16,051 nucleotides of DNA from a virus (IMGVR_UViG_2563366861_000001:1-16051); one strand, 5' to 3'. Shown: positions 2,267-16,051, numbered from the stretch's first letter. Numbers and translations: made by a program. The notes: generated by a model from the sequence alone, not told the origin.

Positions 2267-2282
2267 AAAGCGCCATGTGAAT

Positions 2283-2390
<108 letters not shown>

Positions 2391-2406
2391 AAATAGTTAA
2401 TTGCTC

Positions 2407-3690
2407 TTACTTCTTCGCCTCTGCAACCACTTTACTACCCACGCCGCGGTTATTGTATTCCCACATGCGGTTGTAGTTAGTGTCATTCAGATTGCGCTGT
2501 ATTTCGTCGTTATCATCTACGCTGCCGGTATTACCCGCAAACGGACGATTAGAGATCACCGCATCGGCCCACGGTTTAGCCGTGTTAAAACCTTCGTTGA
2601 TGGCGCTATCACGGATCACCACCTGACCGTTGGTATTGGCATCAACATCCAGCGAGCGGCCCAGTTGCGCCACACCATCACCGAAAGCATTGAAACGGCT
2701 GTTTACGGCGAGGAAACCGTAGTAAATGTTGGACAGCGTAGCCGGTGCAAACACATACGCTTCTTGCTGAGTACGTGAGTTCACCACGCGGAATTCGGTG
2801 TTATCGAACACCACTGCGCCGCGACCAGAAACGATATCCACATCCCCTTCAATGTAGCTGTTGGTCACCAGCGTACGCGGCTGACGATTTGTTTCCAGAC
2901 GGTTCTGCACACCGCTGTTGGTGACAAAGAAGGTGTTCTGACGACCGAGAATGTTAACGTTGTTAATCTGTACCTGGTCACCATCAGTACGCAGTGCCAC
3001 CGCCGGATGGTTACCTGCATCTACGCTATCGCCCAGCGTGTTTTCGATGGTCAGATTTTGCAGTTGCAGGCCATTGTTTTGTGACCAGAAGACCGCAGAG
3101 CAGAGAACACCGATACTGTCGCTGCGTTTGCTCTGGCAGCTATCGTACATATACCACGCTGGTTTACCTGGCATATATTTGCCGCGCGGGTTGACGTCGT
3201 GACGCCAGTCGGCAGGGCTCATGCCACCATCAAGGGAAAGCCCAATCTTCACATCAATCGGTTTTTCACCTGTACCGTACAGAGTAATTCCACCCGGAGC
3301 GGCAGGGACATATACCGTTCCCTGATACTCACCAGGCATCACGGCAATATACTGGCGCTTGTTGGTACGCTTGATAATTGCCGCATCTACCGCCGCCTGA
3401 ATCGTGGTATGCGTTACACCTTGAGTGCCCGCCGGGCCGACAACAAAGTCAGGTTGCGCAGGCAGGGTAATCGGGGAAGGATTCCACGCTGCAGCACCTG
3501 GTGTCAGGGATGCAAAATAGTGTTGAGCATCGAAATTCTGCGCTTCTTTTGCCGACAGAATCGGGCGAGAAGAGGTACCAGGCGCGGTTTGATCAGAAGG
3601 ACGTTGATCGGGCGGGGTTGAGCTACAGGCGGTCAGCGTCACGCCAAAAGCCAATGCCAGCGCCAGACGGGAAACTGAAAATGTGTTCAC
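2407..3690 (-). CDS. ybhC: YbhC, pectinesterase-family outer-membrane lipoprotein (putative acyl-CoA thioesterase); GTG start
   Basis: 427-aa ORF; N-terminus MNTFSVSRLALALAFGVTLTAC has a signal peptide and lipobox; recognised as E. coli YbhC, the gene immediately gal-proximal to attB-lambda. Confidence 0.9.
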   Translation of the reverse strand: MNTFSVSRLALALAFGVTLTACSSTPPDQRPSDQTAPGTSSRPILSAKEAQNFDAQHYFASLTPGAAAWNPSPITLPAQPDFVVGPAGTQGVTHTTIQAAVDAAIIKRTNKRQYIAVMPGEYQGTVYVPAAPGGITLYGTGEKPIDVKIGLSLDGGMSPADWRHDVNPRGKYMPGKPAWYMYDSCQSKRSDSIGVLCSAVFWSQNNGLQLQNLTIENTLGDSVDAGNHPAVALRTDGDQVQINNVNILGRQNTFFVTNSGVQNRLETNRQPRTLVTNSYIEGDVDIVSGRGAVVFDNTEFRVVNSRTQQEAYVFAPATLSNIYYGFLAVNSRFNAFGDGVAQLGRSLDVDANTNGQVVIRDSAINEGFNTAKPWADAVISNRPFAGNTGSVDDNDEIQRNLNDTNYNRMWEYNNRGVGSKVVAEAKK

Positions 3691-3730
3691 AGGTTGCTCC
3701 GGGCTATGAAATAGAAAAATGAATCCGTTG

Positions 3731-3850
3731 AAGCCTGCTTTTTTATACTAAGTTGGCATTATAAAAAAGCATTGCTTATCAATTTGTTGCAACGAACAGG
3801 TCACTATCAGTCAAAATAAAATCATTATTTGATTTCAATTTTGTCCCACT
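3731..3850. other. attL: attL of a lambda-type prophage: core GCTTTTTTATACTAA at 3737-3751 followed by the phage P' arm (IHF H' site region and Int arm-type sites P'1-P'3, e.g. AGGTCACTAT, CAGTCAAAAT, AAATCATTAT)
   Basis: Exact lambda att core and P' arm sequence (TTATACTAAGTTGGCATTATAAAAAAGCATTGCTTATCAATTTGTTGCAACGAACAGGTCACTATCAGTCAAAATAAAATCATTATTTGATTTCAATTTTGTCCCACTCC); bacterial arm on the ybhC side, phage arm running into int. Confidence 0.93.
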
Positions 3851-4895
3851 CCCTGCCTCTGTCATCACGATACTGTGATGCCATGGTGTCCGACTTATGC
3901 CCGAGAAGATGTTGAGCAAATTTATCGCTTATCTGCTTCTCATAGAGTCTTGCAGACAAACTGCGCAACTCGTGAAAGGTTGGCGGATCCCCTTCGAAGG
4001 AGAGACCTGATGCTTTTCGTGCGCGCATAAAATACCTTGATACTGTGCCGGATGAAAGCGGTTCACGACGAGTAGATGCAATTATGGTTTCTCCGCCAAG
4101 AATCTTTTTGCATTTATCAAGTGTTTCCTTCATTGATATCCCGAGAGCATCAACATGCAATGTTGTTGGGATGGCAATTTTTACGCCTGTTTTGCTTTGC
4201 TCGACATAAAGATATCCATCTACGATATCAGACCACTTCATTTCGCATAAATCACCAACTCGCTGCCCGGTAACAACAGCCAGTTCCATTGCAAGTCTAA
4301 GCCAACATGGTGATGATTCTGCTGCTTGATAAATTTTCAGGTATTCGTCAGCCGTAAGTCTTGATCTCCTTACCTCTGATTTTGCAGCGCGAGTGGCTGC
4401 GACCGGGTTTGTTGTTATATGGCCTTCAGCCATAGCCTCTCGGAATGCATCGCTCAGTGTTGATCTGATTAACTTGGCTGATGCCGCCTTTCCCTCGTCT
4501 ATGTATCCATTGAGCATTGCCGCAATTTCTTTTGTGGTGATGTCTTCAAGTGGAGCATCAGGCAGACCCCTCCTTATTGCTTTAATTTTGCTCATGTAAT
4601 TTATGAGTGTCTTCTGCTTGATTCCTCTGCTGGCCAGGATTTTTTCGTAGCGATCAAGCCATGAATGTAACGTAACGGAATTATCACTGTTGATTCTCGC
4701 TGTCAGAGGCTTGTGTTTGTGTCCTGAAAATAACTCAATGTTGGCCTGTATAGCTTCAGTGATTGCGATTCGCCTGTCTCGGCCTAATCCAAACTCTTTA
4801 CCCGTCCTTGGGTCCCTGTAGCAGTAATATCCATTGTTTCTTATATAAAGGTTAGGGGGTAAATCCCGGCGCTCATGACTTCGCCTTCTTCCCAT
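3825..4895 (-). CDS. int: Lambda-type integrase (tyrosine recombinase Int), apparently full length
   Basis: 356-aa ORF, near-identical to remembered phage lambda Int (MGRRRSHERRDLPPNLYIRNNGYYCYRDPRTGKEFGLGRDRR...REWDKIEIK); 3' end overlaps the P' arm as in lambda. Confidence 0.97.
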   Translation of the reverse strand: MGRRRSHERRDLPPNLYIRNNGYYCYRDPRTGKEFGLGRDRRIAITEAIQANIELFSGHKHKPLTARINSDNSVTLHSWLDRYEKILASRGIKQKTLINYMSKIKAIRRGLPDAPLEDITTKEIAAMLNGYIDEGKAASAKLIRSTLSDAFREAMAEGHITTNPVAATRAAKSEVRRSRLTADEYLKIYQAAESSPCWLRLAMELAVVTGQRVGDLCEMKWSDIVDGYLYVEQSKTGVKIAIPTTLHVDALGISMKETLDKCKKILGGETIIASTRREPLSSGTVSRYFMRARKASGLSFEGDPPTFHELRSLSARLYEKQISDKFAQHLLGHKSDTMASQYRDDRGREWDKIEIK

Positions 4896-5091
4896 TTCTG
4901 ATCCTCTTCAAAAGGCTACCTGTTACTGGTCGATTTAAGTCAACCTTTACCGCTGATTCGTGGAACAGATATTCTCTTCCATCCTTAACCGGAGGAGGGA
5001 ATATCCTGCATTCGCGCACCCATCGACGAACTGTTTCAAGGCTTCTTGGGCGTCGCTGGCGAGCGTTCCACTCCTGAAGTGTCAAGTACAT
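4873..5091 (-). CDS. xis: Lambda-type excisionase Xis; overlaps the int start as in lambda
   Basis: 72-aa ORF MYLTLQEWNARQRRPRSLETVRRWVRECRIFPPPVKDGREYLFHESAVKVDLNRPVTGSLLKRIRNGKKAKS matching remembered lambda Xis. Confidence 0.95.
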   Translation of the reverse strand: MYLTLQEWNARQRRPRSLETVRRWVRECRIFPPPVKDGREYLFHESAVKVDLNRPVTGSLLKRIRNGKKAKS

Positions 5092-5116
5092 CGCAAAGTC
5101 TCCGCAATTACACGCA

Positions 5117-5140
5117 AGAAAAAACCGCCATCAGGCGGCT
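5117..5140 (-). terminator. Candidate intrinsic terminator just after the orf55-like gene (5-bp GC stem plus G-U, 4-nt loop containing the stop codon, then a 6-U tract)
   Basis: Minus strand reads GCCGCC-TGAT-GGCGGT followed by TTTTTT (plus-strand A-run 5119-5124). Confidence 0.35.
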
Positions 5141-5298
5141 TGGTGTTCTTTCAGTTCTTCAATTCGAATATTGGTTATGTCTGCATGTGCTATCTGCGCC
5201 CATATCATCCAGTGGTCATAGCAGTCATTGATGTTCTCTGCTTCGATAACTCTGTTGAATGGTTCTCCATTCCATTCACCTGTGACTCGGAAGTGCAT
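5131..5298 (-). CDS. Small 55-aa protein upstream of xis (lambda orf55-like); below the ORF-track size cutoff
   Basis: Hand translation of the minus strand: MHFRVTGEWNGEPFNRVIEAENINDCYDHWMIWAQIAHADITNIRIEELKEHQAA, stop TGA; position matches the small ORF next to xis in lambda (identity from memory, unverified). Confidence 0.5.
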   Translation of the reverse strand: MHFRVTGEWNGEPFNRVIEAENINDCYDHWMIWAQIAHADITNIRIEELKEHQAA

Positions 5299-5307
5299 TT
5301 ATCATCT

Positions 5308-5336
5308 CCATAAAACAAAACTCGCCGTAGCGAGTT
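5308..5336 (-). terminator. Candidate intrinsic terminator downstream of the 142-aa moron gene
   Basis: Stem AACTCGC / GCGAGTT (5319-5325 / 5330-5336) with loop CGTA; on the minus strand it is followed by the U-rich run TTTTGTTTTA. Confidence 0.45.
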
Positions 5337-5380
5337 CAGATATAATTTCCACCAAAGGCAGTAGTTGCTGATGCTAAGAA

Positions 5381-5809
5381 TTATTCAATATCTATTCCTG
5401 TAATATCTTTTATCTTTTTCCTTGCAAAGCCTTTTGCTAGTGATTTTGAAACACTTATTAGTGTACTAATTCCCTCATCCTTAAAGTTTGTTTTTATAGT
5501 TTGCCAGACCTCCTTTTGACGCAAGTCAGCAATAAAATCATGCCCTCTTGCTGTCAACCTCAGTGGTACTTCGATCCAACTATATCCAACACCTTCCCCT
5601 AACTCGTTGGACATTATATGACCGAACCCAGGTTTTCCATCAACCCTGACTATTAATTCGTAGTCGCATAATAATCGCATATGGAAAATAAAATTTTGGT
5701 CATATCTATTAAAGCCATTATCCTCTAGTTCACTAAGCATCGTGTCAGGGCCATGAGTTTTTTCGAATGCGATAAGTAGATCTTTTAGATATTGCTGGTC
5801 TAATTTCAT
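5381..5809 (-). CDS. Hypothetical 142-aa protein (moron gene in the int-xis-proximal accessory hotspot); function unknown
   Basis: ATG-initiated ORF with a GGAGG Shine-Dalgarno 6 nt upstream, its own downstream terminator, and AT-rich composition distinct from the flanking lambda-type genes; no family recognised. Confidence 0.65.
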   Translation of the reverse strand: MKLDQQYLKDLLIAFEKTHGPDTMLSELEDNGFNRYDQNFIFHMRLLCDYELIVRVDGKPGFGHIMSNELGEGVGYSWIEVPLRLTARGHDFIADLRQKEVWQTIKTNFKDEGISTLISVSKSLAKGFARKKIKDITGIDIE

Positions 5810-6056
5810 TGCCGCCTCCGTGACATGTCACAGAGATTTATATCATTAATTTTGTTTCGTGCCAGCCTTTGGTCACCCAGCATTGTGAGTCACCATTACA
5901 CGGGCATGAATTAACAGGAACTCTCTCGCCGCACTTACCGCAACGTTTTCTGCTGATCGATTTTATACGCCAGCGCACACGTGCATCATCCTGGCGGCTC
6001 AGTAACGCGATGTACTCACCAAACTCGTAAGGCGCATGCCTGAAGCGGCGCGTGGC

Positions 6057-6176
6057 TCAGTTACGATCCAGCATTTCAATTTCCTGAGCATCAAGTACAA
6101 GCTCCAGCTTACGCATACCGGATGATGCTTGCTTGGCTCTCTGATCGACTTTGCGCTCTGCTGATGATTTAGCCAT
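6057..6176 (-). CDS. Hypothetical 39-aa protein (MAKSSAERKVDQRAKQASSGMRKLELVLDAQEIEMLDRN); same frame continues after a single TGA into a 72-codon zinc-ribbon-like segment (5838-6056)
   Basis: ATG at 6174-6176 preceded by an AGGA Shine-Dalgarno; stop TGA at 6057-6059; the downstream frame (…RKRCGKCGERVPVNSCPCNGDSQCW…) stays open to TAA at 5838-5840 with no ATG of its own. Confidence 0.35.
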   Translation of the reverse strand: MAKSSAERKVDQRAKQASSGMRKLELVLDAQEIEMLDRN

Positions 6177-6370
6177 TCTGCTTTTCCTGCATTAGGAGAA
6201 AGACAATCATGGCGGCGCGGATACTTCCGGTATCTTTTTACTCGATATTACCCTTCAATGGCACATACAAGAAGAGAGCCATCAACAGGAGTGAGTGAGG
6301 AATCGACAACCAGCAACGCTTAATTATCTATAGTGTCGTATTTGCTTCATAAAATATGGCGAATAACACA

Positions 6371-6404
6371 AAGCCCGCAGCAGCTCATTGTGCGGGCTTT
6401 TCTT
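6371..6404. terminator. Candidate bidirectional intrinsic terminator between convergent transcription units (9-bp stem AAGCCCGCA / TGCGGGCTT, T-run on the plus side)
   Basis: Perfect inverted repeat at 6371-6379 / 6391-6399 followed by TTTCTT; lies about 70 nt past the stop of the 204-aa minus-strand gene. Confidence 0.5.
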
Positions 6405-6469
6405 ATACATACTTCCTAGAGATAATTCTATGGAGGCATTAAATTAATACTGTCATTGGTAATATCATA

Positions 6470-7084
6470 TTATCTAAAAGTCTTTCCACTTTTAACGTCT
6501 AGGTATATTCTGTTCGACAACGTCATTCCTCCGCAATATGTGAAATAGATGTTTTTCCCCTTATTGCTTGATGCCATCCACCCTCCGATTTCCTTAAAGT
6601 CGCTTTCCGTGCAGACCCCTTCGTTTATTAACTTCCTAGCTGCCGAAGAAAACTCTTTTTTGTATATACGGTAGTCATCAGATCCTTTGATTAAAGTATC
6701 ATCTCCGCTCGCATTTTCAGCAGGATCTGATGGCCTTTCACTGCTAAGATCACTAAGTTTAACCCATTCTGAAAACTTGCCATTGACGATTCCGTTTTTT
6801 CTTGTGCAGGATTTATTACCTTCTTTAATATATTCGCTTTCCCCTCCCACACATGAGGCTGAATATGGCTCAGTTATACGAACCCATTCACCTTTTTTTT
6901 CTAGAAAATCTACGCCTTCCCTGAAAAATAGTTTCCCAGCCACTCCACATTTACTTGAAGGGCAGGTATGTCTTTCCGTTCGATCAACAACAACCCAAAG
7001 TCTTGATTCATTTTTTGCCATTGCCGATGGTATTTGAGATGAGACAATTAACGTAAGCCCTAAAATTAGTATTGATTTTTTCAT
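6470..7084 (-). CDS. Hypothetical secreted, cysteine-rich 204-aa protein (moron); function unknown
   Basis: ATG start with an AAGGA Shine-Dalgarno; N-terminus MKKSILILGLTLIVSSQIPSAMA is a typical Sec signal peptide; 7 Cys in the mature part; low GC; terminator downstream. Confidence 0.65.
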   Translation of the reverse strand: MKKSILILGLTLIVSSQIPSAMAKNESRLWVVVDRTERHTCPSSKCGVAGKLFFREGVDFLEKKGEWVRITEPYSASCVGGESEYIKEGNKSCTRKNGIVNGKFSEWVKLSDLSSERPSDPAENASGDDTLIKGSDDYRIYKKEFSSAARKLINEGVCTESDFKEIGGWMASSNKGKNIYFTYCGGMTLSNRIYLDVKSGKTFR

Positions 7085-7530
7085 TGTAATTTCCTTTTAC
7101 TTTTTACAAAGCGTTTAATCATGGCTGATTATCTTTAAGCGTAGTAACAGCCTTGTGCGAAACATGTTACCAAATCGCCATTTCAGTGTATCCGCAGTTA
7201 GGCTGCCACTTCAAGGATTCCTAATTACATGGTACGTAAGCGTAAAATCCCGTTGGTTGTCGGGTAATAACTCTGATCAAATCTCCCTTGTCTTTTGCTC
7301 TTACGTATGCAGCTCTTGTGTATTCAACCCAGGCCTCCAGTTCAGCAATACGCTTACTTCCATCCGAGATAACACCTTCTACTCACGCTGCTCGTTGAGT
7401 TTTGATTTTTGCTGTCTCCAGCTCAACACGCAGTTTCCTCACCGTTAGCGCAATATCCTCGTTCTCCTGGTCGCGGCGTTTGATGTACTGCTGGTTTCTT
7501 TCCCGTTCATCCAGCAGTGTCAGCACAATC

Positions 7531-7563
7531 GATGGTACGCTGCAGGATAATGTCCGGTGTCAT
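7531..7563 (-). pseudogene. exo: Remnant of lambda exo (first 10 codons MTPDIILQRT only), then unrelated sequence
   Basis: ATG overlaps the bet stop (ATGA) exactly as in lambda; reading diverges from remembered lambda Exo after codon 10 and hits a stop 8 codons later. Confidence 0.6.
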
Positions 7564-8009
7564 GCTGCCACCTTCTGCTCAGTGGCTTTCTGTTTCAGGA
7601 ATCCAAGAGCTTTCACTGCTTCGGCCTGTGTCAGTTCTGACGATGCGCGAATGTCGCGGCGAAATATCTGGGAACAGAGCGGCAATAAGTCGTCATCCCA
7701 TGTTTTGTCCAGGGCAATCAGCAGAGTGTTAATCTCCTGCATGGTTTCATCGTTAACCGGAGTAATGTCGCGTTCCGGCTGACGTTCTGCGGTGTATGCG
7801 GTATTTTCGACAATGCGCTCGGCTTCATCCTTGTCATAGATACCAGCAAATCCGAAGGCCAGACGGGCACACTGAATCATGGCTTTATGCCGTAACATCC
7901 GTTTGGGATGCGACTGCCACGGCCCCGTAATTTCTCTGCCTTCGCGGGTTTTGAATGGTTCGCGGCGGCATTCATCCATCCACTCGGTAACGCAGATCGG
8001 ATGATTACC
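7560..8009 (-). pseudogene. bet: Remnant of lambda bet (Red-beta): C-terminal ~150 codons only, 5' portion deleted
   Basis: Translation NHPICVTEWMDECRREPFKTREGREITGPWQSHPKRMLRHKAMIQCARLAFGFAGIYDKDEAERIVENTAYTAERQPERDITPVNDETMQEINTLLIALDKTWDDDLLPLCSQIFRRDIRASSELTQAEAVKALGFLKQKATEQKVAA matches the remembered C-terminus of lambda Bet; homology stops near 8009. Confidence 0.88.
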
Positions 8010-8165
8010 GGTTCGCTACCAGGGAAGAACGGGAAGGAAAGGTGAGCACGAATCTGATTTTCAAGGAGTGTCGCCAGAGTGCCGCGATGAAGCGGGTGTT
8101 GGCATTTTATCGCGGCAATTTTCAATAGACTATGTACATAAAAATATCATTTTTTTAATACATGT

Positions 8166-8357
8166 CTAATTATTGGACGAAATTGGTTTTTGCTTTGGTT
8201 TAGTTAGCCTAGCAATCAAGCCAGAGGCAATAATGATGATCCAAGCAATTTGATGCAATGCTACTCCAATATAAGAACCTTTATAGATAATAAAGGCATA
8301 GATCGCTAGAAACGAAATAAATATCCATAACGAAAGTTGATAAATTTTGGCGCGCAT
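8166..8357 (-). CDS. Possible small membrane protein (63 aa from ATG at 8357; two predicted transmembrane helices)
   Basis: Hydrophobic ORF MRAKIYQLSLWIFISFLAIYAFIIYKGSYIGVALHQIAWIIIIASGLIARLTKPKQ...; weak ribosome-binding site; the ORF-track start at 8372 is a TTG. Confidence 0.3.
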   Translation of the reverse strand: MRAKIYQLSLWIFISFLAIYAFIIYKGSYIGVALHQIAWIIIIASGLIARLTKPKQKPISSNN

Positions 8358-8613
8358 ATTTAATCCAATCAATCAGAAAGACGAGTAATCATAGAGGTAC
8401 TATCACCCGGGTAACTATTGCTATTATGAACGGATAGGATAGAGGCTTCAATAACATATGCATCAAGTATGATGGAATATGTAGGTGAAAATGACTTGTG
8501 TCAAATTTGTGGAAATGAGTACCATGTTTCTCTGAAATTGATGTCGTTAATGGCTAGTGATAGTGAACTTTTTTACTTTATAATTCCTTTGGTTATAACA
8601 ATAAGGTAAATTT

Positions 8614-9174
8614 ATGAAGAAGATAATATTATTAGCCATGATTATTGGTTCTTTAACAGGTTGCGCTAGTGTGCCACCATTGAATTTTTCAACACCTAAC
8701 GTGGGAGTTAGCCAGAAAAAAATAGATGCTGAAATTAAGTCATTAACGGTATCACTTGCTCGTCCAGATGAGCAGAAAGGGGATATCACTGCTGGTATGG
8801 AGGCTATAACTCCAATTTGGCGTGAATCTTTGCAGGAAGCACTCGACCGAATGACTATTTTTCGTGATAGTTCACCAAATACGGTTAGCTTAAATGTTAA
8901 AGTGTTGGCTCTTGACGTTCCTGCTTTTGGTGTTTCAATGACAACTAAAGCAATTGCAAGGTATGAAATAATCAACCGTGCGAATGGTGATATTATATAT
9001 ACGCAGGATATTGAGTCTACCGGTACTGTTCCAGCCAGTTACGCATTCTACGGTATTGTTCGAGCACGCGAATCTGTTAATCGCGCGGTGCAAAACAACA
9101 TAACGCAGTTCTTGCAAGCATTAGAAAGTGTTGATCTTTCTCGTCCAATGTTTCCTGTTAGGGTAGCTAAATGA
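8614..9174 (+). CDS. Putative lipoprotein, 186 aa (signal peptide plus lipobox LTGC); possibly YajG-like, function unknown
   Basis: MKKIILLAMIIGSLTGCAS… lipoprotein signal; ATG with upstream AAGG; stop overlaps the next gene's start (ATGA); low GC. Confidence 0.7.
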   Translation: MKKIILLAMIIGSLTGCASVPPLNFSTPNVGVSQKKIDAEIKSLTVSLARPDEQKGDITAGMEAITPIWRESLQEALDRMTIFRDSSPNTVSLNVKVLALDVPAFGVSMTTKAIARYEIINRANGDIIYTQDIESTGTVPASYAFYGIVRARESVNRAVQNNITQFLQALESVDLSRPMFPVRVAK

Positions 9175-9623
9175 AGCGATTATTCGTAATTGCTCCACTC
9201 TTAGTGTTGGTTGGATGCGCACAAAATATATCGCCAAATAGTTATTCTGTTGGCTCTGTGGGCATGGTTAATCGAACTATCGCTGGTACAGTTATTAGTG
9301 CTAGGGGGGTTGATATCAGTGGGACTTCCGCGTTAGGCGGGACTGCTGGGGCTGCCGTGGGGGCAACCGCTGGTTCTGCGCTTGGTGGGGGAGTTCGTTC
9401 TAATATCGTTGGTGCCGTTGGTGGTGCAGTCATTGGTGGTATTGCCGGGGCAGCAATCGAATCTTCAGCAACAAAACAAACAGGCATGGAATATGTTGTC
9501 GAAACTGAGAATGGGAATTTAATGACCATTGTTCAAGGCAAAGATCCGTTATTTACTCAAGGAAGTAAGGTCCTTGTTTTATACGGAAACCCTTCTCGCA
9601 TAATAACAGACCCGCGTCACTAA
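9171..9623 (+). CDS. SlyB-like outer-membrane lipoprotein with a glycine-zipper domain, 150 aa
   Basis: Lipobox LLVLVGCA, then the Gly-rich segment GTSALGGTAGAAVGATAGSALGGGVRSNIVGAVGGAVIGGIAGAAIE and a C-terminal region resembling SlyB/Pcp (family assignment from memory). Confidence 0.7.
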   Translation: MKRLFVIAPLLVLVGCAQNISPNSYSVGSVGMVNRTIAGTVISARGVDISGTSALGGTAGAAVGATAGSALGGGVRSNIVGAVGGAVIGGIAGAAIESSATKQTGMEYVVETENGNLMTIVQGKDPLFTQGSKVLVLYGNPSRIITDPRH

Positions 9624-9663
9624 CATACCTTTTGATTTTGTAAAATCAATTCGTAATAATAAA

Positions 9664-9700
9664 GTCATCGGAGCTTGAACAACTCCGGTGACTTCTGCGC
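9664..9700 (+). terminator. Candidate terminator after the lipoprotein operon (10-bp stem GTCATCGGAG / CTCCGGTGAC with one G-U, 9-nt loop, weak T-rich tail)
   Basis: Inverted repeat at 9664-9673 / 9683-9692 followed by TTCTGCGC. Confidence 0.3.
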
Positions 9701-9813
9701 TAAACGGGGACGTTTATGCGCACATACAATCCAAACTCTCTTCTCCCTTCACAGATGCAGAAATGCACCTGCGATTTTTTGCATCCAGCGTCTGACCTCT
9801 GCGGAGGTGAAGC

Positions 9814-10269
9814 GTGAACCTACCACAAGATGGCATCAAACTGCATCGCGGTAACTTCACCGCTATCGGCCAGCAGATCCAGCCTTATCTGGAGGACGGA
9901 AAATGCTTTCGCATGGTGCTTAAACCGTGGCGTGAGAAACGCAGTCTTTCCCAGAATGCACTCAGCCACATGTGGTACAGCGAAATCAGTGAATACCTCA
10001 TCAGCAGGGGGAAATCGTTCGCTACCGCAGCATGGGTAAAAGATGCTCTCAAACACACATACCTCGGTTATGAAACCAAGGACCTGGTTGATGTCGTAAC
10101 CGGCGAAATCACTACTATCCAGTCGTTACGCCATACCTCCGATCTTGATACCGGAGAGATGTATATCTTCCTGTGTAAGGTTGAAGCCTGGGCGGTGAAT
10201 ATTGGCTGCCACCTGACTATTCCGCAGAGCTGCGAGTTCCAGCAGCTCCGCGACAAACAGGAGGCGTAA
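9814..10269 (+). CDS. ybcN: Nin-region protein YbcN-like, 151 aa, GTG start
   Basis: [58 protein letters not shown]… recognised as the DLP12-type YbcN preceding ninE; GGAGG Shine-Dalgarno upstream. Confidence 0.8.
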
Positions 10270-10439
10270 TGGCTACACCGCTTATTCGTGTCATGAACGG
10301 ACACATCTACAGAGTACCAAATCGTCGTAAGCGTAAACCGGAGCTGAAGCCTTCCGAAATACCAACACTGCTCGGATATACCGCCAGCCTGGTTGATAAA
10401 AAATGGTTGCGACTGGCAGCAAGGAGGAGTCATGGCTGA
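10269..10439 (+). CDS. ninE: NinE, 56 aa
   Basis: Hand translation [56 protein letters not shown]; start overlaps the ybcN stop (TAATG); conserved lambdoid nin-region order. Confidence 0.8.
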   Translation: MATPLIRVMNGHIYRVPNRRKRKPELKPSEIPTLLGYTASLVDKKWLRLAARRSHG

Positions 10440-10722
10440 TTTGAGAAAAGCAGCGCGTGGTCGGGAATGCCAGGTAAGAATCCCTGGCGTATGTAATGGC
10501 AACCCTGAAACGTCTGTACTGGCACATATCCGGCTGACTGGATTGTGCGGCACCGGTACGAAACCGCCAGACCTGATTGCCACCATTGCATGTTCTGCCT
10601 GCCACGACGAAATCGACCGCCGCACACATTTTGTCGATGCTGCATATGCAAAAGAATGCGCGCTGGAAGGTATGGCGAGAACACAGGTTATCTGGCTGAA
10701 AGAGGGGGTTATTAAGGCGTGA
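10432..10722 (+). CDS. ybcO: YbcO-like (DUF1364) putative nuclease, 96 aa from the ATG at 10432
   Basis: [64 protein letters not shown]…; AGGAGG Shine-Dalgarno just upstream; overlaps the ninE stop. Confidence 0.85.
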
Positions 10723-11081
10723 ATACCTACAGCATCACATTACCCTGGCCTCCGAGCAATAATCGCTATTACCGCCATAATCGCGGGCGCACACACATCA
10801 GCGCAGAAGGGCAGGCATACCGCGATAACGTCACCCGAATCATTAAAAACGCAATGCTGGATATCGGCCTGGCTATGCCAGTGAAAATCCGTATTGAGTG
10901 CCACATGCCGGATCGCCGTCGCCGTGACCTGGATAATCTGCAAAAAGCCGCTTTTGACGCACTCACCAAAGCAGGTTTCTGGCTGGATGATGCTCAGGTC
11001 GTTGATTACCGCGTTGTGAAGATGCCTGTTACCAAAGGTGGGAGGCTGGAACTGACCATCACCGAAATGGGGAATGAATGA
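10719..11081 (+). CDS. rusA: RusA Holliday-junction resolvase, 120 aa
   Basis: [37 protein letters not shown]…[12 protein letters not shown] matches remembered E. coli RusA almost residue for residue. Confidence 0.93.
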
Positions 11082-11218
11082 TGTTTGAGTTTAATATGGC
11101 AGAACTTCTTCGCCACCGCTGGATGCGCCTGCGCTTATATCGTTTCCCCAGTTCTGTTTTGACCGATTACCGAATACTGAGGAATTACGCCAAAACCCTG
11201 ACAGGAGCAGGAGTATGA
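11078..11218 (+). CDS. ylcG: Small 46-aa protein YlcG-like, between rusA and Q
   Basis: Hand translation [46 protein letters not shown]; overlaps the rusA stop; position matches ylcG of DLP12 (sequence identity from memory, unverified). Confidence 0.55.
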
Positions 11219-11303
11219 AGTCAGAGATAACAATCAACTAATACTGTTTTATTGATTTTTGCTTGTAATTGGCGTTCTGGTCTGATTTTTGTGGAGTAAG
11301 TTG

Positions 11304-11687
11304 ATGCGTGATATTCAGATGGTTCTTGAGCGTTGGGGAGCGTGGGCGGCTAATAATCATGAAGATGTGACCTGGTCGTCCATTGCCGCCGGTTTTAAGG
11401 GATTAATTACTTCAAAAGTAAAATCTCGCCCGCAATGTTGTGACGATGACGCGATGATCATTTGCGGGTGCATGGCCCGTCTGAAAAAGAACAACAGCGA
11501 TTTGCACGATTTATTAGTAGATTATTATGTAGTCGGTATGACATTCATGTCACTGGCAGGTAAGCATTGCTGCTCTGATGGTTATATCGGGAAAAGGTTA
11601 CAGAAGGCTGAGGGTATAATTGAAGGGATGTTAATGGCATTAGATATCCGGTTAGAGATGGATATCGTTGTTAATAACTCTAATTAA
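11304..11687 (+). CDS. Late-gene antiterminator Q (phage 82/DLP12 QuuD-type), 127 aa from the ATG at 11304
   Basis: [60 protein letters not shown]… with Cys-rich zinc-binding motifs; sits after the nin genes and before the lysis cassette. Confidence 0.85.
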
Positions 11688-11702
11688 TATGCCAATTGTT
11701 TA

Positions 11703-11738
11703 CTAAAAATTATTAAAAATGGGGCGTTGAGACGCCCC
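11703..11738 (-). terminator. Candidate intrinsic terminator for the porin gene (stem GGGGCG / CGCCCC, then ATTTTTAATAATTTTT on the minus strand)
   Basis: Inverted repeat 11721-11726 / 11733-11738 with a U-rich run on the minus-strand 3' side. Confidence 0.4.
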
Positions 11739-11826
11739 CAAAAATAAAGGGTAATATATAACAGAAGGTTTATATAGTTAGAAGCAAGGTTGTGCTCCTA
11801 AAGGAAGTGGCTTGAGGGAGCCACTT

Positions 11827-11866
11827 ATATGTTGGGGAGGCAAAGCCTCCCGCAACATATCTTTTA
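11827..11866 (+). terminator. Candidate hairpin terminator downstream of Q (stem ATATGTTGGGGAGGC / GCCTCCCGCAACATAT followed by CTTTT)
   Basis: Long imperfect inverted repeat 11827-11860 followed by a short T-run; lies between convergent Q and the porin gene. Confidence 0.35.
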
Positions 11867-11875
11867 GTAATCAAA

Positions 11876-12958
11876 TTAGAACTGGTAAACCATACCTACA
11901 GCAACGATATCATCGGTAGCAACGCCAGATGCTTTCGTGAAATCGCTCTTATCAATCAGGTTGATTTTGTAATCAACAAAAGTGGACATATTTTTGTTGA
12001 AGTAATAGGTTGCACCTACATCAATATATTCAACCAGGTCCTGATCACCCCACGCACCCAAGTCTTTTCCTTTAGATTGCAGGTAAGCAACGGACGGACG
12101 CAGACCGAAGTCGAACTGATATTGTGCAACTACTTCGAAGTTTTGTGCTTTGTTGGCAATATGGTTATTACCAAAAACAGTCATGTTCTGGGTTTCAGAA
12201 TAGGTGGTAGCCAGATAGATGTTGTTCGCATCATATTTCAGACCAGCTGCCCATACTTCAGCATTTTGACCAGATGCATTCAGGCTGTTGTTACCGTAGA
12301 TAACCTGATTATTAGTGCGGTCAGATTTAGCATAGGTTGCACCTACACCGAATCCTTCATACTCATAAGTAGTGGAGAAACCGAAACCATCACCATTAGC
12401 TTCAGTTACGTCAGTGCGGTCATTTTTACCCTGATACTGAGCAGCAAAGTTCAGACCATCAACCAGACCAAAGAAGTCATTGTTACGATAAGTTGCAACA
12501 CCTGTGGTGCGACCAGTCATGAATACATCTGTTTGGGTCCAGGTATCGCCACCGAATTCTGGCAGAACGTCGGTCCATGCACCAATATCGTATGCTACAC
12601 CGTAGTTACGGCCATAATCGATGGAGCCGTAGTCACCGAATTTCAGGCCAGCGAAGGCAAGACGGGTTTTATCTTTGGAGGAACCTTGAGATTCAGCGCG
12701 GTTGCCTTTGAATTCATATTCCCACTGACCGAAACCAGTCAGTTGATCGTTGATTTGGGTTTCACCTTTGAAGCCAAGACGGGCATAAGTAGTATCACCA
12801 TCATCTGCATCATTAGAGGAGAAGTAGTGCTTAGCATTAACTTTCCCGTACAGATCCAGCTTGTTACTGTCTTTATTATAAATTTCAGCTGCCTGAGCAG
12901 ACATCGCCATCAGTACTGATGCAGCTACAGCAGAAATTGCCACTGTTAATTTTTTCAT
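11876..12958 (-). CDS. nmpC: Phage-borne OmpC-family general porin (NmpC/Lc type), 360-aa precursor, apparently full length; start taken at [11 protein letters not shown]…
   Basis: Signal peptide [23 protein letters not shown], mature N-terminus [17 protein letters not shown]…, C-terminal …VAVGMVYQF with terminal Phe typical of porins; located between Q and the holin as in DLP12 and PA-2. Confidence 0.9.
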
Positions 12959-13384
12959 CGTGAGCCCTTTTTTTGAACTATTATTAAAAAATGATGTCAC
13001 TGCGCGATAAATATTCATCTAATCAATGTGATTATTTCAAGATGTAAGTTTTGGTTTCTCATTTGATTTGTGAAGTAGATCTCTATTTTTATCTGAACTT
13101 TTTCTATCGAATCCTATTCATGGCTCTTGGCTGAATAAAAATAAATCTATTAGCCAATTTATATTAATGGCTGTTATTTATAAGTGCTCTATAATTTGAA
13201 GATTCAATTTAAACCAGCTAAAAATAACGCTGGAAATTATTTGTTGGTTATTTGTTGAGATTTGCTTATGTATTTGTAGTGGTGTTTTCAATACTCGGTA
13301 GCATTCTCGCAAATATCATTTAGTGGTTTACGTACGTAAAAAATTGGTTATGCTGTTAAGAGTGGTTACTTCGTCACACAGCTT

Positions 13385-13416
13385 AAACCCGCCGTCGAGC
13401 GGGTTTTTCCATTTTT
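13385..13416 (+). terminator. Intrinsic terminator upstream of the lysis cassette, candidate tR' (8-bp stem AAACCCGC / GCGGGTTT, loop CGTCGA, then TTTTCCATTTTTT)
   Basis: Perfect inverted repeat 13385-13392 / 13399-13406 followed by a T-rich tract on the plus strand, about 130 nt before the holin start. Confidence 0.55.
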
Positions 13417-13545
13417 TGAGTCTCGATATTAGCTGATAACCCAATACCTGAGTTATTCACTGACTCCGAGTCTGTTAAGTTTCTGCTTTTTTGCGATACG
13501 TTGTATTCCCTCAATTTACACCCGCTTTGTCTGCGAGGTGGGGTT

Positions 13546-13761
13546 ATGAAATCCATGGATAAGTTAACAACGGGTGTCGCCTATGGCACCTCAGCAGGTA
13601 GTGCCGGTTACTGGTTTTTACAGCTGCTCGATAAAGTCACGCCCTCACAGTGGGCAGCAATAGGTGTGCTGGGTAGCCTGGTATTTGGCCTGCTGACGTA
13701 CCTGACAAACCTTTATTTCAAGATTAAAGAAGATAAGCGCAAGGCTGCGAGAGGTGAATAA
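13546..13761 (+). CDS. S: Class II holin/pinholin of the phage 21 S family, 71 aa, with dual-start motif MKSM (antiholin/holin)
   Basis: [71 protein letters not shown], close to remembered S21; Shine-Dalgarno GAGGTGGGG; stop overlaps the endolysin start (TAATG). Confidence 0.9.
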
Positions 13762-14258
13762 TGCCTCCATCATTACGAAAAGCCGTTGCTGCTGCTATTG
13801 GTGGCGGAGCAATTGCTATAGCATCAGTGTTAATTACTGGCCCAAGTGGTAACGATGGTCTGGAAGGTGTCAGCTACGTACCATACAAAGATATCGTTGG
13901 CGTATGGACTGTATGTCACGGACACACCGGAAAAGACATCATGCTCGGTAAAACGTATACCAAAGCAGAATGCAAAGCACTCTTGAATAAAGACCTTGCC
14001 ACTGTCGCCAGACAAATTAACCCGTACATCAAAGTCGATATACCGGAAACAACGCGCGGCGCTCTTTACTCATTCGTTTACAACGTGGGTGCTGGCAATT
14101 TCAGAACATCGACGCTTCTTCGCAAAATAAACCAGGGCGATATCAAAGGCGCATGTGATCAGCTACGTCGCTGGACATATGCTGGCGGTAAGCAATGGAA
14201 AGGTCTCATGACTCGTCGTGAGATTGAGCGTGAAATCTGTTTGTGGGGTCAGCAATGA
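13761..14258 (+). CDS. R: SAR endolysin (phage 21 R-type lysozyme), 165 aa
   Basis: N-terminal Gly/Ala-rich signal-arrest-release helix ([20 protein letters not shown]) followed by the T4-lysozyme-like catalytic region [23 protein letters not shown]. Confidence 0.92.
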
Positions 14259-14716
14259 ACAGAGTAACCGCGATTATCTCCGCTCTGGTTATCTGCATCA
14301 TCGTCTACCTGTCATGGGCTGTTAATCATTACCGTGATAACGCCATTACCTACAAAGCCCAGCGCGACAAAAATGCCAGAGAACTGAAGCTGGCGAACGC
14401 GGCAATTACTGACATGCAGATGCGTCAGCGTGATGTTGCTGCGCTCGATGCAAAATACACGAAGGAGTTAGCTGATGCGAAAGCTGAAAATGATGCTCTG
14501 CGTGATGATGTTGCCGCTGGTCGTCGTCGGTTGCACATCAAAGCAGTCTGTCAGTCAGTGCGTGAAGCCACCACCGCCTCCGGCGTGGATAATGCAGCCT
14601 CCCCCCGACTGGCAGACACCGCTGAACGGGATTATTTCACCCTCAGAGAGAGGCTGATCACTATGCAAAAACAACTGGAAGGAACCCAGAAGTATATTAA
14701 TGAGCAGTGCAGATAG
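14255..14716 (+). CDS. Rz: Rz inner-membrane spanin subunit, 153 aa from the ATG at 14255
   Basis: [68 protein letters not shown]…; N-terminal TM helix then coiled coil; overlaps the R stop (ATGA). Confidence 0.9.
14475..14657 (+). CDS. Rz1: Rz1 outer-membrane lipoprotein spanin subunit, embedded in the +1 frame of Rz
   Basis: [24 protein letters not shown]… lipobox plus proline-rich tract ([15 protein letters not shown]); classic Rz/Rz1 embedded-gene architecture. Confidence 0.85.
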
Positions 14717-14747
14717 AGTTGCCCATATCGATGGGCAACTCATGCAA

Positions 14748-15041
14748 TTATTGTGAGCAATACACACGCGCTTCCAGCGGAGTATAAATGCCTAAAGTAA
14801 TAAAACCGAGCAATCCATTTACGAATGTTTGCTGGGTTTCTGTTTTAACAACATTTTCTGCGCCGCCACAAATTTTGGCTGCATCGACAGTTTTCTTCTG
14901 CCCAATTCCAGAAACGAAGAAATGATGGGTGATGGTTTCCTTTGGTGCTACTGCTGCCGGTTTGTTTTGAACAGTAAACGTCTGTTGAGCACATCCTGTA
15001 ATAAGCAGGGCCAGCGCAGTAGCGAGTAGCATTTTTTTCAT
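14748..15041 (-). CDS. bor: Bor lipoprotein (serum-resistance lysogenic-conversion factor), 97 aa
   Basis: MKKMLLATALALLITGCAQQTFTVQNKPAAVAPKETITHHFFVSGIGQKKTVDAAKICGGAENVVKTETQQTFVNGLLGFITLGIYTPLEARVYCSQ; recognised as lambda Bor / DLP12 BorD. Confidence 0.9.
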   Translation of the reverse strand: MKKMLLATALALLITGCAQQTFTVQNKPAAVAPKETITHHFFVSGIGQKKTVDAAKICGGAENVVKTETQQTFVNGLLGFITLGIYTPLEARVYCSQ

Positions 15042-15331
15042 GGTGTTATTCCCGATGCTTTTTGAAGTTCGCAGAATCGTATGTGTAGAAAATTAAACAA
15101 ACCCTAAACAATGAGTTGAAATTTCATATTGTTAATATTTATTAATGTATGTCAGGTGCGATGAATCGTCATTGTATTCCCGGATTAACTATGTCCACAG
15201 CCCTGACGGGGAACTTCTCTGCGGGAGTGTCCGGGAATAATTAAAAACGATGCACACAGGGTTTAGCGCGTACACGTATTGCATTATGCCAACGCCCCGG
15301 TGCTGACACGGAAGAAACCGGACGTTATGAT

Positions 15332-15587
15332 TTAGCGTGGAAAGATTTGTGTAGTGTTCTGAATGCTCTCAGTAAATAGTAATGAATTATCAAAGGTATA
15401 GTAATATCTTTTATGTTCATGGATATTTGTAACCCATCGGAAAACTCCTGCTTTAGCAAGATTTTCCCTGTATTGCTGAAATGTGATTTCTCTTGATTTC
15501 AACCTATCATAGGACGTTTCTATAAGATGCGTGTTTCTTGAGAATTTAACATTTACAACCTTTTTAAGTCCTTTTATTAACACGGTG
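15332..15587 (-). pseudogene. ybcV: YbcV-like (DUF1398) gene, 5'-truncated by the right-hand IS1
   Basis: The reading frame …[83 protein letters not shown] runs open into the IS1 terminal repeat; the ORF-track start at 15601 is a TTG inside IS1. Family name recalled from the DLP12 gene order, with moderate certainty. Confidence 0.55.
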
Positions 15588-16051
15588 GGTAATGACTCCA
15601 ACTTATTGATAGTGTTTTATGTTCAGATAATGCCCGATGACTTTGTCATGCAGCTCCACCGATTTTGAGAACGACAGCGACTTCCGTCCCAGCCGTGCCA
15701 GGTGCTGCCTCAGATTCAGGTTATGCCGCTCAATTCGCTGCGTATATCGCTTGCTGATTACGTGCAGCTTTCCCTTCAGGCGGGATTCATACAGCGGCCA
15801 GCCATCCGTCATCCATATCACCACGTCAAAGGGTGACAGCAGGCTCATAAGACGCCCCAGCGTCGCCATAGTGCGTTCACCGAATACGTGCGCAACAACC
15901 GTCTTCCGGAGCCTGTCATACGCGTAAAACAGCCAGCGCTGGCGCGATTTAGCCCCGACGTATCCCCACTGTTCGTCCATTTCCGCGCAGACGATGACGT
16001 CACTGCCCGGCTGTATGCGCGAGGTTACCGACTGCGGCCTGAGTTTTTTAA
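15588..16051 (-). mobile_element. IS1: IS1 insertion sequence, partial (runs off the window end), inverted relative to the IS1 at 1-187
   Basis: Begins with the IS1 terminal repeat GGTAATGACTCCAACTTATTGATAGTG at 15588; 15588-15774 is the exact reverse complement of 1-187. Confidence 0.95.
15603..16049 (-). CDS. insB: IS1 transposase InsB reading frame (5' end outside window)
   Basis: …[68 protein letters not shown]…HYLNIKHYQ, recognised as IS1 InsB. Confidence 0.92.

Follow-up and report, generated by a model that had tools for sequence, protein, structure and literature searches.

How did a prophage that combines the integration genes of phage lambda with a late region resembling that of the E. 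coli K-12 prophage DLP12 come to lie at the lambda attachment site without its early region? The stretch of DNA that we analysed (16,051 nucleotides, hereafter the window) contains this prophage at 3737–15587, between ybhC on one side and an IS1 copy on the other, in a chromosome of the E. coli/Shigella type (features in Table 1). We are highly confident that it is an ordinary cryptic prophage of the lambda family at attB-lambda, derived by deletion from a mosaic lambdoid phage, and nothing in the data stands against this structural account.

The initial annotation had placed a cryptic lambdoid prophage at attB-lambda, and this assignment was borne out by an exact attL, the lambda P′ arm and the ybhC flank. 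The 15-bp lambda core GCTTTTTTATACTAA has a single exact match within the window (3737–3751) in an exact B-O-P′ junction, the 100 bp from the core onward are identical to lambda 27724–27823 (P′ arm), and the attB B arm (tgaagcct) could be read directly to the left of the core. The right boundary is also exact, homology to IS1-free relatives extending to 15587 and GGTAATGAC, the end of an IS1 copy, following from 15588. Within the window this IS1 marks where the prophage visibly ends on the right. It is inverted with respect to the copy at 1–187 and shows 99.1% identity to IS1 in NCTC9104. The copy at 1–187 (100% identical to the NCTC9104 IS1) truncates ybhJ, of which the first ~185 nt are gone, and ybhJ homology to strain A14 starts again at 188. 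Relatives that lack the IS1 carry a 20.3-kb element ending in attR; in A14 attR (P-O-B′) adjoins ybhB, and cos, nu1, part of A and tail-fibre remnants are all that precedes it. Sized on these relatives, the window holds the left ~58% (~12 kb) of a ~20-kb element.

Table 1. Features of the window, with position, strand and supporting evidence
Feature	Position	Strand	Evidence
IS1 copy, 3′ end (outside prophage)	1..187	+	Ends in IS1 terminal repeat ...AAGTTGGAGTCATTACC
ybhC, chromosomal gene, gal side of attB-lambda	2407..3690	-	RefSeq annotation of colinear genomes
attL (B-O-P′)	3737..3840	+	Core 3737-3751, then lambda P′ arm
int, lambda-type tyrosine integrase, 356 aa	3825..4895	-	98.6% to lambda Int over 356/356 aa
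xis, excisionase, 72 aa	4873..5091	-	71/72 aa identical to lambda Xis; 72/72 aligned
orf55 homologue (lambdap35)	5131..5298	-	98.2% identity, 55/55 aa aligned
ea-region accessory cassette, low GC	5347..7335	-	Colinear with phage Chlobot at 98%
DUF2513 protein, left cassette	5381-5809	-	Pfam
Gene with internal stop, left cassette	5838-6176	-	
Degenerate UmuD-like fragment, left cassette	6002-6316	-	
204-aa signal-peptide protein, left cassette	6470-7084	-	
ea22 relic (aa 34-102)	7332..7535	-	tblastn lambda Ea22 81%; Pfam Ead_Ea22 E=5.5e-17
Secondary deletion junction (GGT)	7534..7536	.	Breakpoints vs Chlobot
Red relic: exo codons 1-10 + bet codons 114-261	7534..8008	-	475 bp; blastn, tblastn, Pfam
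ren relic, C-terminal 44 codons	7994..8125	+	tblastn 93% to PhiR30_1 Ren aa 54-97
Primary deletion junction, ATTAC 5-bp microhomology	8004..8008	.	blastn-map breakpoints; junction sequences
Low-GC moron cassette, ren to ybcN	8104..9629	+	100% identical to PhiR30_1 ren-to-ybcN interval
Small ORF, moron cassette	8169-8357	-	
Predicted lipoprotein, 186 aa	8614-9174	+	Lipobox in translation
Glycine-zipper lipoprotein, 150 aa	9171-9623	+	Lipobox; weak Pfam Gly-zipper match
nin region, ylcH to ylcG	9716..11218	+	Full length, 88-100% aa to DLP12 proteins
ybcN	9814-10269	+	DLP12 protein match
ninE	10269-10439	+	DLP12 protein match
ybcO	10432-10722	+	DLP12 protein match
rusA	10719-11081	+	DLP12 protein match
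ylcG	11078-11218	+	DLP12 protein match
Late antiterminator Q, QuuD type, 127 aa	11304..11687	+	Pfam Phage_antitermQ E=3.5e-53
Porin, NmpC/OmpD type, 360 aa, intact ORF	11876..12958	-	Pfam Porin_1 E=3e-153
Lysis cassette	13546..14716	+	96-100% aa to DLP12 counterparts
essD, S21-type holin	13546-13761	+	Pfam Phage_holin_2_1 ('P21 holin S') E=2e-35
rrrD, SAR-type endolysin	13761-14258	+	Pfam Phage_lysozyme
Rz spanin (rzpD)	14255-14716	+	DLP12 match
Rz1 spanin (rzoD), embedded in Rz	14475-14657	+	DLP12 match
bor, serum-resistance lipoprotein	14748..15041	-	97/97 aa = lambda Bor
ybcV C-terminal half (lambdap78, DUF1398), IS1-interrupted	15335..15587	-	tblastn aa 89-177 of 177
IS1 copy, running off window	15588..16051	-	Terminal repeat GGTAATGACTCC at 15588

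The lambda-type int, xis and orf55-like gene proved intact, as had been claimed, all three being full length and 98–99% identical to their lambda counterparts; Int retains R212, K235, H308, R311, H333 and Y342. The cassette that follows is part of a 3.8-kb segment that has the same order as in phage Chlobot (PP925838), with which it is colinear. It matched phrog_585 and phrog_8310 in PHROGs, both of unknown function, and gave no match in PADLOC and NCBIfam searches. The Red relic matched lambda 31990–32473 at 96.7% in blastn and Bet aa 114–261 at 99.3% in tblastn, with a partial Pfam match to RecT; its extent agrees with the ~480-bp exo/bet relic described initially as the sole Red trace. Two other relics, those of ren and ea22, had been overlooked. 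At the position of the ren relic, PGAP labels the gene in relatives 'protein ren, partial'.

At the primary junction bet codon 114 is joined directly to ren codon 54, and this direct fusion at a microhomology indicates a single deletion of 6.4–6.8 kb. Its size is 6.4 kb when measured against phage PhiR30_1 (PV340558), where the match to the bet fragment lies 6.4 kb further left than the match to ren, 6.8 kb against Chlobot and 8.0 kb against lambda. The genes removed are gam, kil, the N/cIII region (pL), cI, cro, cII, O/ori, P and the 5′ part of ren. The initial annotation had joined the two blocks of homology through moron cassettes of low GC. This view did not hold, since the bridge is the bet–ren fusion itself and each cassette has its counterpart, at the corresponding position, in a phage whose genome was deposited as complete (the left one in Chlobot, the right one in PhiR30_1). 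Searches by tblastn with N, cI, cro, cII, O, P, gam, kil, cIII and rexAB of lambda or PhiR30_1 as queries gave no match with an E value below 0.01, and a six-frame Pfam search of 5090–9720 returned DUF2513, Ead_Ea22, RecT and a glycine zipper only. The absence of immunity and replication genes that had been reported is thereby supported, and at Pfam sensitivity no repressor, antiterminator or replication gene of a novel type was seen in 5092–9700. A secondary deletion of ~1.7 kb removed TraR/orf73, orf61/63/60a and exo beyond codons 1–10, window 3737–7536 corresponding to Chlobot 19589–15789 and window 7534–8008 to Chlobot 14088–13614. These trimming deletions in the exo/TraR region vary among otherwise identical strains. 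A14 has 439 bp extra at the secondary junction, and in NCTC9104 a full exo still adjoins the identical bet–ren junction, which shows that the decay was stepwise.

To the right of ren, the proteins of both lipoprotein genes contain lipoboxes (LTGC and LVGC), as read from the translations. A promoter-like site at 8557–8584 in this cassette and a terminator-like hairpin at 13385–13406 (+ strand) upstream of S were called by consensus matching only; relative to shuffled sequence, promoter-like sites showed no enrichment. The late region had been described as DLP12-like and intact, and the alignments agree: ylcH, ybcN, ninE, ybcO, rusA, ylcG, quuD, essD, rrrD, rzpD, rzoD and bor match DLP12 end to end with no stops at 88–100%, the genes from ybcN to bor at 94–100%, and the porin ORF is complete. 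Pfam matches in the nin region were NinB and YbcO, and Q is 100% identical in amino acids to DLP12 QuuD and PhiR30_1 Q. The porin shows 90% amino acid identity to that of PhiR30_1, the middle part of its gene reaching just 80–87% nucleotide identity to any reference; this gene, between Q and S, is a lysogenic-conversion gene. The rrrD endolysin has a Gly/Ala-rich hydrophobic N-terminus in translation, and window 14255–15587 is 99.6% identical in nucleotides to lambda 45966–47297.

The ybhC–attL–int junction occurs in 1919 of 5426 complete E. coli genomes (~35% with a lambda-int element at the site). The ybcN–Q module was present at a coverage of at least 80% in 2263 of the 5426, and also in many deposited lambdoid phages; being so common, the DLP12-like block is not, as had been implied, out of place here. 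We propose that a lambda-type Int inserted an ordinary mosaic lambdoid phage, both of whose arms match deposited phages, into the canonical attB, which has ybhC on one side and ybhB on the other. The left arm of this phage would have been Chlobot-like, with att, int and xis of lambda joined to an ea-region cassette and the Red genes, and its right arm PhiR30_1-like, with ren, the two-lipoprotein moron, a DLP12-type nin region and a QuuD-type Q, followed by porin, S21 pinholin, SAR endolysin, Rz/Rz1 and bor. One illegitimate deletion at ATTAC fused bet to ren with loss of the early region; the microhomology deletions in the exo/TraR region came later, and in the window's strain IS1 has inserted into ybcV.

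We infer that the element can neither replicate nor confer immunity. It presumably makes no particles, because its relatives also lack head and tail genes. The normal routes of int/xis expression (pL with N, and cII-activated pI) would have been lost, so that the element can probably not leave its site unless the missing functions come from a superinfecting phage of lambda type. It may serve incoming lambdoid phages both as a secondary att target and as a reservoir of homology. The porin, bor and lipoprotein genes, which have promoters of their own, could still be expressed, and the Q-lysis module would be expressible only at a low, host-controlled level, as for DLP12, whose lysis operon in K-12 is reported to have low, host-controlled expression involving Q, RpoE and Hha (PMC7918800). 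Host phenotypes and host regulators reported for that operon (PMC7918800), the mostly single-copy state of the module in carriers of the element, and late ORFs that are all full length while repeated deletions erode the early region would fit domestication, the Q–pinholin–SAR endolysin–spanin module, porin, bor and lipoproteins being kept by selection for host use. Possible roles would then be serum resistance and, as DLP12 has been reported to have, a part in the turnover of the envelope or in making vesicles, and the element would stand in for DLP12 where the latter is absent. We consider this rather unlikely, since ~23–31 carriers are 99.9–100% identical over the element and give no selection signal, so that the intact ORFs may just be young, and IS insertions in several strains (IS1 in ybcV in the window's strain and NCTC9104, ISEc52 in MS 124-1, IS1 in 1332KP) look like neutral decay.

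The picture implied by the initial annotation was a chromosomal hybrid, in which a prophage of lambda type at attB took over a foreign right arm by recombination with, or conversion by, the resident DLP12 at argU, the morons marking the joints. The element's right arm is indeed 94.7–96.9% identical in nucleotides to K-12 DLP12, and A14 continues past the window's end with ybcV-ybcW-ylcI-nohD (98.7% to DLP12). However, Chlobot already pairs lambda-type int/xis with this Q/porin/holin module, and for this reason the mosaic of lambda-like and DLP12-like parts is older than the decay. PhiR30_1 pairs lambda-type exo/bet and ren with the same lipoprotein cassette and nin-lysis arm, and the supposed joint is 100% identical in it (window 7950–9950, from ren across the lipoprotein cassette into the first part of ybcN); the actual joint is the bet–ren deletion, which contains no cassette. 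The single ybcN–Q copy in most genomes that carry the element leaves no DLP12 donor, and homologues of intD, emrE, ybcK, ybcL and ybcM were not found in the element. An origin as such a hybrid is therefore very improbable.

We give hardly any credence to a helper-dependent, satellite-like element, excised and packaged by a co-resident or superinfecting lambdoid helper. The IS1-free 20.3-kb relatives do keep both att sites, and their int, xis and cos junction with nu1 are all intact; two copies (40.6 kb) would be compatible with the lambda head, the size limit of which admits this length. Against this, there is no replication/primase module, helper-sensing regulator or capsid-redirecting gene, the attR P arm in relatives is 85.8% identical to lambda with a mismatch in the core, IS1 splits the left part from what follows in the window's strain, and deletions of a normal phage account for the whole architecture. 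An assembly artefact joining two unrelated prophage fragments, a concern raised initially and favoured by the abrupt homology change at 8004–8008 and nothing further, is refuted for junctions inside 188–15587 by a 411-bp junction interval that is identical and uninterrupted in 17 complete E. coli genomes with independent assemblies, and by flanks colinear with the chromosome in 31 genomes.

The element shares its insertion site and general class with the lambda-like large mobile elements described from laboratory strains at ybhC–ybhB, lambda-B of E. coli B and lambda-Cr of Crooks (PMC3032704). Identity with lambda-B was rejected, BL21-type genomes matching the ea22 segment of the left arm only. 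A P21-type holin, a lysozyme with a Gly/Ala-rich N-terminus and Rz1 within Rz recall the pinholin/SAR-endolysin system of phage 21, from which no difference was detected at sequence level. Chlobot shares the region from att to the ea22 relic (3737–7536, 3.8 kb colinear at 98.1%) and segments of bet, ren and Q-porin-holin; it runs from lambda-type int/xis through exo-bet-gam-kil-N-cI-cro-cII-O-P-ren and carries the same Q/porin/holin module, but has another ren–ninB interval and endolysin region. PhiR30_1 shares the bet fragment and ren to ybcV (window 8004–15587, colinear at 96.8%) but has a different integrase. Unlike the element, both carry morphogenetic genes and an early region that is complete (gam, kil, N, cI, cro, cII, O, P); a literature search found no paper on either, and we took them as infectious because each was deposited as a complete phage genome whose record gives an isolation host or source. 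With lambda the element shares the attB site, core, P′ arm, orientation (gal side, attL, int), Int/Xis/orf55 (98–99% aa) and Rz, Rz1, bor and p78 (99.6% nt), whereas it lacks pL/N, the immunity and the replication region, has another ea region, and its nin, Q, holin and endolysin are not lambda's (no tblastn match in the element to lambda NinB–I, Q, S or R save a weak one to NinE). DLP12 (qsr′) differs in its place at argU, its integrase intD, its emrE-ybcK-ybcL-ybcM where the element carries two lipoprotein genes, and its IS3 in renD and IS5 in nmpC, the element's porin being intact. The two share, at the identities given above, the order ylcH-ybcN-ninE-ybcO-rusA-ylcG-quuD-porin-essD-rrrD-rzpD/rzoD-bor-ybcV, and both are defective, their early regions having been lost by different, independent deletions.

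Alignment by blastn to lambda, DLP12 (the cryptic prophage at argU in K-12) and related phages revealed that bet is fused straight to ren, codon 114 of the former to codon 54 of the latter, with nothing between them. Window positions 7534-8008 matched lambda 31990-32473 and positions 8004-8103 matched lambda 40449-40548, the bet-side and ren-side matches sharing the pentanucleotide ATTAC. The gap at this junction amounted to 6.4 kb when compared with PhiR30_1 (PV340558; 4169 to 10541) and to 6.8 kb when compared with Chlobot (PP925838; 13614 to 6813), two Escherichia phages deposited as complete genomes, and in these phages it contains gam, kil, the N region, cI, cro, cII, O, P and the 5' part of ren. 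The direct fusion with its ATTAC overlap and the content of the gap in the phages indicate that a single illegitimate deletion removed the early region. The gene order int-xis-ea/Red-(pL N, immunity, replication)-nin-Q-lysis was kept, colinear with Chlobot and PhiR30_1, and the bracketed block was deleted. By these alignments, the two homology blocks distinguished in the initial annotation are the two sides of a single bet-ren deletion. Their supposed bridging by low-GC cassettes could not be upheld, as the real joint is the direct fusion and the cassettes match deposited phages in place; the locus is better annotated with a single deletion than as a cassette-joined hybrid. Misassembly, which had been named as a possible refutation, was dismissed because a 411-bp interval over the junction ran unbroken in each of 17 complete genomes.

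The proteins N, cI, cro, cII, O, P, gam, kil, cIII and rex of lambda and PhiR30_1 gave no tblastn match better than E = 0.01, and a six-frame Pfam search of positions 5090-9720 detected only DUF2513, Ead_Ea22, a partial RecT and a glycine zipper, with no early genes. The earlier statement that the whole early region is missing therefore held in both searches. The exo/bet relic proposed as the sole trace of the Red genes was also real (blastn, tblastn), and it was accompanied by two relics that had been overlooked, one of ren and one of ea22. A degenerate UmuD-like (S24-type) fragment was considered as an immunity gene and rejected, since Chlobot has this fragment besides its own repressor.

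Positions of the features in the window and, for the decay series, in colinear relatives carrying the same prophage
Feature	Position	Description
ybhJ		5' end cut by IS1 fragment 1-187
ybhJ-ybhC intergenic region	2290-2391	REP-like palindromic units; A14 has ~90 bp more (copy-number difference)
ybhC	2407-3690	minus strand; directly left of attL
lambda att core	3737-3751	GCTTTTTTATACTAA
Left cassette	5347-7335	part of one 3.8-kb colinear Chlobot match (98.1%), att core to ea22 relic
Left-cassette genes	5381-7084	DUF2513 protein; internal-stop gene (5838-6176); UmuD/S24-like fragment (6002-6316); 204-aa signal-peptide protein (phrog_8310)
ea22 relic	7332-7535	piece of ea22
Red relic	7534-8008	residues 1-10 of exo and 114-261 of Bet
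ren relic	7994-8125	C-terminal 44 codons
bet-ren junction	8004-8008	
Right cassette	8104-9629	small ORF and two predicted lipoproteins; 100% identical to PhiR30_1 ren-to-ybcN interval
Lipoprotein pair	8614-9623	adjacent; 186 aa (lipobox LTGC) and 150 aa (LVGC, glycine zipper)
Porin gene centre	11950-12450	80-87% nt identity to DLP12, PhiR30_1 and Chlobot porins; flanks >99%
Rz	14255-14716	
Rz1	14475-14657	nested in Rz
IS1 copy, right	15588-16051	inverted relative to left copy; cuts ybcV
Left of bet-ren junction, window	7534-7536	without TraR, without exo
Left of bet-ren junction, A14	L001 22458-22898	TraR, bet'; without orf60a, exo
Left of bet-ren junction, NCTC9100	L006 5163-6024	TraR, orf60a, most of exo; without bet'
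Left of bet-ren junction, NCTC9104	L007 16276-17962	orf63, orf60a, full exo, bet'

Four otherwise 100%-identical copies of the element formed a decay series, in which all shared the bet-ren junction and differed to its left, with 3-5 nt of microhomology at each of the series' junctions. Three of the deletions had one endpoint each inside exo codons 10-13 (TCGATCCCGGTACGC), no more than 6 bp from one another; a hot spot for breaks, or a junction used again, may lie behind this clustering. The gene ybcV was hit by IS1 twice, independently, at 15587/15588 in the window and at the equivalent of 15394-15402 in NCTC9104, the latter with a 9-bp duplication; the NCTC9104 copy occupies L007 25357-26124, 190 bp from the window's insertion point. 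Further IS copies were found inside the element in other strains. The series is a natural illustration of stepwise prophage decay involving microhomology deletions and IS1 hits only. Beyond the end of the window, strain A14, which is without the IS1, carries ybcV, ybcW, ylcI, cos and nohD/nu1, then a truncated terminase gene joined to a tail-fibre remnant, and further right tfa, an AraC-family gene, IS fragments and attR. The head and tail genes are gone from the relatives except for nu1, part of A and tail-fibre remnants. The element thus has the make-up of a cryptic prophage, having lost the repressor/antiterminator circuit, replication and, judged from the relatives, morphogenesis genes. 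In A14 (L001 30900-38955) the cos junction is intact and nu1/nohD is followed by 1.76 kb of gene A, longer than the aaaD remnant of DLP12, so that the head-tail deletion is independent of that in DLP12.

The lambda att core had a single exact match in the window, with the B arm of attB to its left and the P' arm to its right, and 100 bp from the core were identical to lambda, so that the lambda-type attL reported earlier was confirmed. Its orientation was the standard gal-attL-int, at the ybhC/ybhB (gal-bio) locus. Int aligned over 356/356 aa (98.6% to lambda) with six of six residues of the R-K-H-R-H-Y set kept, Xis over 72/72 aa with 71 identical, its gene overlapping the start of int, and the orf55 product over 55/55 aa of the lambda protein (all tblastn); these full-length alignments and the conserved catalytic residues of Int agreed with the description of the three genes as lambda-type and intact. 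In the window IS1 begins at 15588, and the question of whether attR lies beyond it was answered in the relatives: attR (P arm, core, B') adjoins ybhB in NCTC9104 and in the IS1-free A14. In A14 the P arm was 85.8% identical to lambda and was followed by the core ACTTTTTTATACTAA, which differs by 1 nt (G-to-A), and then B'; the two att cores were 20.3 kb apart. A second att-like core with 2 mismatches (A14 L001 37115-37129) was attributed to chance, as it had no arm homology and lay in AT-rich DNA. Carrier strains are without a free attB for lambda-based integration tools. The window itself is E. coli-type chromosome with ybhJ and ybhC, followed by phage DNA up to the second IS1, and at least 80% of it was matched at 99.9% identity in 31 of 5426 complete E. 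coli genomes. The left IS1 removed ~185 nt from the start of ybhJ, and its target is similar to an IS1 end. None of the complete E. coli genomes had the right IS1/ybcV junction, and an exact-match scan of contigs did not find it in GTDB representatives. With inverted IS1 at both window ends, the intervening 15.4 kb could have been inverted or could be mobilised as a unit. The density of IS1 might, as a guess, point to a Shigella-like lineage or to E. coli rich in IS1.

The late genes that had been listed as intact and DLP12-like were all found by tblastn at full length, with 88-100% identity to their DLP12 counterparts. Pfam assigned the Q antiterminator family, a complete porin, 'P21 holin S' (PF04971) and phage lysozyme (PF00959), and the N-terminus of the lysozyme was Gly/Ala-rich and hydrophobic, typical of signal-anchor-release endolysins. 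On these features the genes correspond to a predicted phage 21-type pinholin/SAR-endolysin cassette. The identity profile was that of a lambdoid patchwork, with Rz to p78 99.6-100% lambda-like and Q 99.6-100% identical to DLP12, PhiR30_1 and Chlobot. The divergent centre of the porin gene is an allelic replacement, probably of surface loops, within an otherwise conserved module. Both low-GC cassettes are ordinary lambdoid accessory-gene slots. Neither Pfam, PHROGs (all 'unknown function'), NCBIfam (no names) nor PADLOC (no match) assigned a function to their products, and a reading of these moron genes as a defence system was rejected on the PADLOC, NCBIfam and PHROGs results. The 186-aa lipoprotein is annotated, doubtfully, as an acyltransferase in PhiR30_1. 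Promoter-like sites were not commoner than in shuffled sequences in a consensus scan, with one candidate at 8557-8584, upstream of the lipoprotein genes, and no RNA genes were detected in the window by Rfam (gathering thresholds) or ARAGORN.

Having lost pL, N, cI, cro, cII, O, P and ori, the element would be capable of neither induction nor replication and would confer no immunity. Lambda Int and Xis are expressed from pL with N and through the cII-dependent pI. In the element Int and Xis look functional and both of these routes appear to be lost, so excision should need functions in trans. The porin, bor and lipoprotein genes are of the kind that would have their own promoters and be expressed in lysogens. 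For the DLP12 lysis cassette in K-12, control by Q, RpoE and Hha has been reported, as has an effect on vesicle production (PMC7918800); by analogy, the intact Q-pinholin-SAR endolysin-spanin cassette may be under the same control and have the same effect. Since the carriers are 99.9-100% identical, the intact ORFs may reflect no more than youth, and they speak neither for nor against domestication. We also considered whether the remnant is a helper-dependent mobile element, excised and packaged by a co-infecting lambda-int-type phage as a multimer of ~2 x 20.3 kb, in which case the porin, bor and lipoprotein cargo would spread. The IS1-free relatives keep intact int/xis, attL and attR, cos and nu1, Q and the lysis cassette, and are without replication, immunity and structural genes. 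The six-frame Pfam search of 5090-9720 found no satellite or PICI functions (own primase/rep and ori, helper-responsive repressor, packaging hijack), and every ORF outside that interval was explained by lambda or DLP12 homologues. We consider such a life cycle very improbable and retain the reading as a defective prophage, one that offers homology to lambdoid phages and vectors.

The element shares with DLP12 the series ybcN-ninE-ybcO-rusA-ylcG-quuD-nmpC-essD-rrrD-rzpD/rzoD-bor, at 94.7-96.9% nucleotide identity and with all proteins full length. This ybcN-to-bor module is not diagnostic of DLP12, because 2263 of 5426 complete E. coli genomes (~42%) carry its ybcN-Q part at 80% coverage or more, as do many deposited phages. 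DLP12 resides at argU with intD, whereas the window element resides at attB-lambda and had no intD homologue (best E = 2.7, tblastn). Where DLP12 has emrE-ybcK-ybcL-ybcM between ren and ybcN, the window gave no tblastn matches to these genes and holds the two-lipoprotein cassette in the slot; unlike DLP12 in K-12, with IS3 in renD and IS5 in nmpC, its porin ORF is uninterrupted. By these differences the element is not DLP12. Most of its carriers had a single copy of the ybcN-Q module, and thus apparently no DLP12-type copy elsewhere in their genomes. The ybhC-attL-int junction of a lambda-int-type element occurred in 1919 of the 5426 genomes (~35%). We found no paper on PhiR30_1 or related PhiR phages and none naming the window element; the sole mention found of the ybhC-ybhB site was a table listing lambda-like elements there for E. 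coli B and Crooks (PMC3032704). RefSeq genomes already carry separate annotations for the genes of the element. In E. coli, both use of attB-lambda and possession of the DLP12-type late module are very common. The significance of the element beyond bookkeeping is slight. The observation made in the initial annotation and the outline of its interpretation stood; the cassettes as a bridge between the arms did not, and neither did the unusual character of the lambda/DLP12 combination, for Chlobot, from puddle water, already couples lambda-type int/xis/att to a QuuD-type Q, a porin gene and the same holin. Built from modules common to lambda, DLP12 and deposited phages, the element adds one more case to the familiar class of defective lambdoid prophages.
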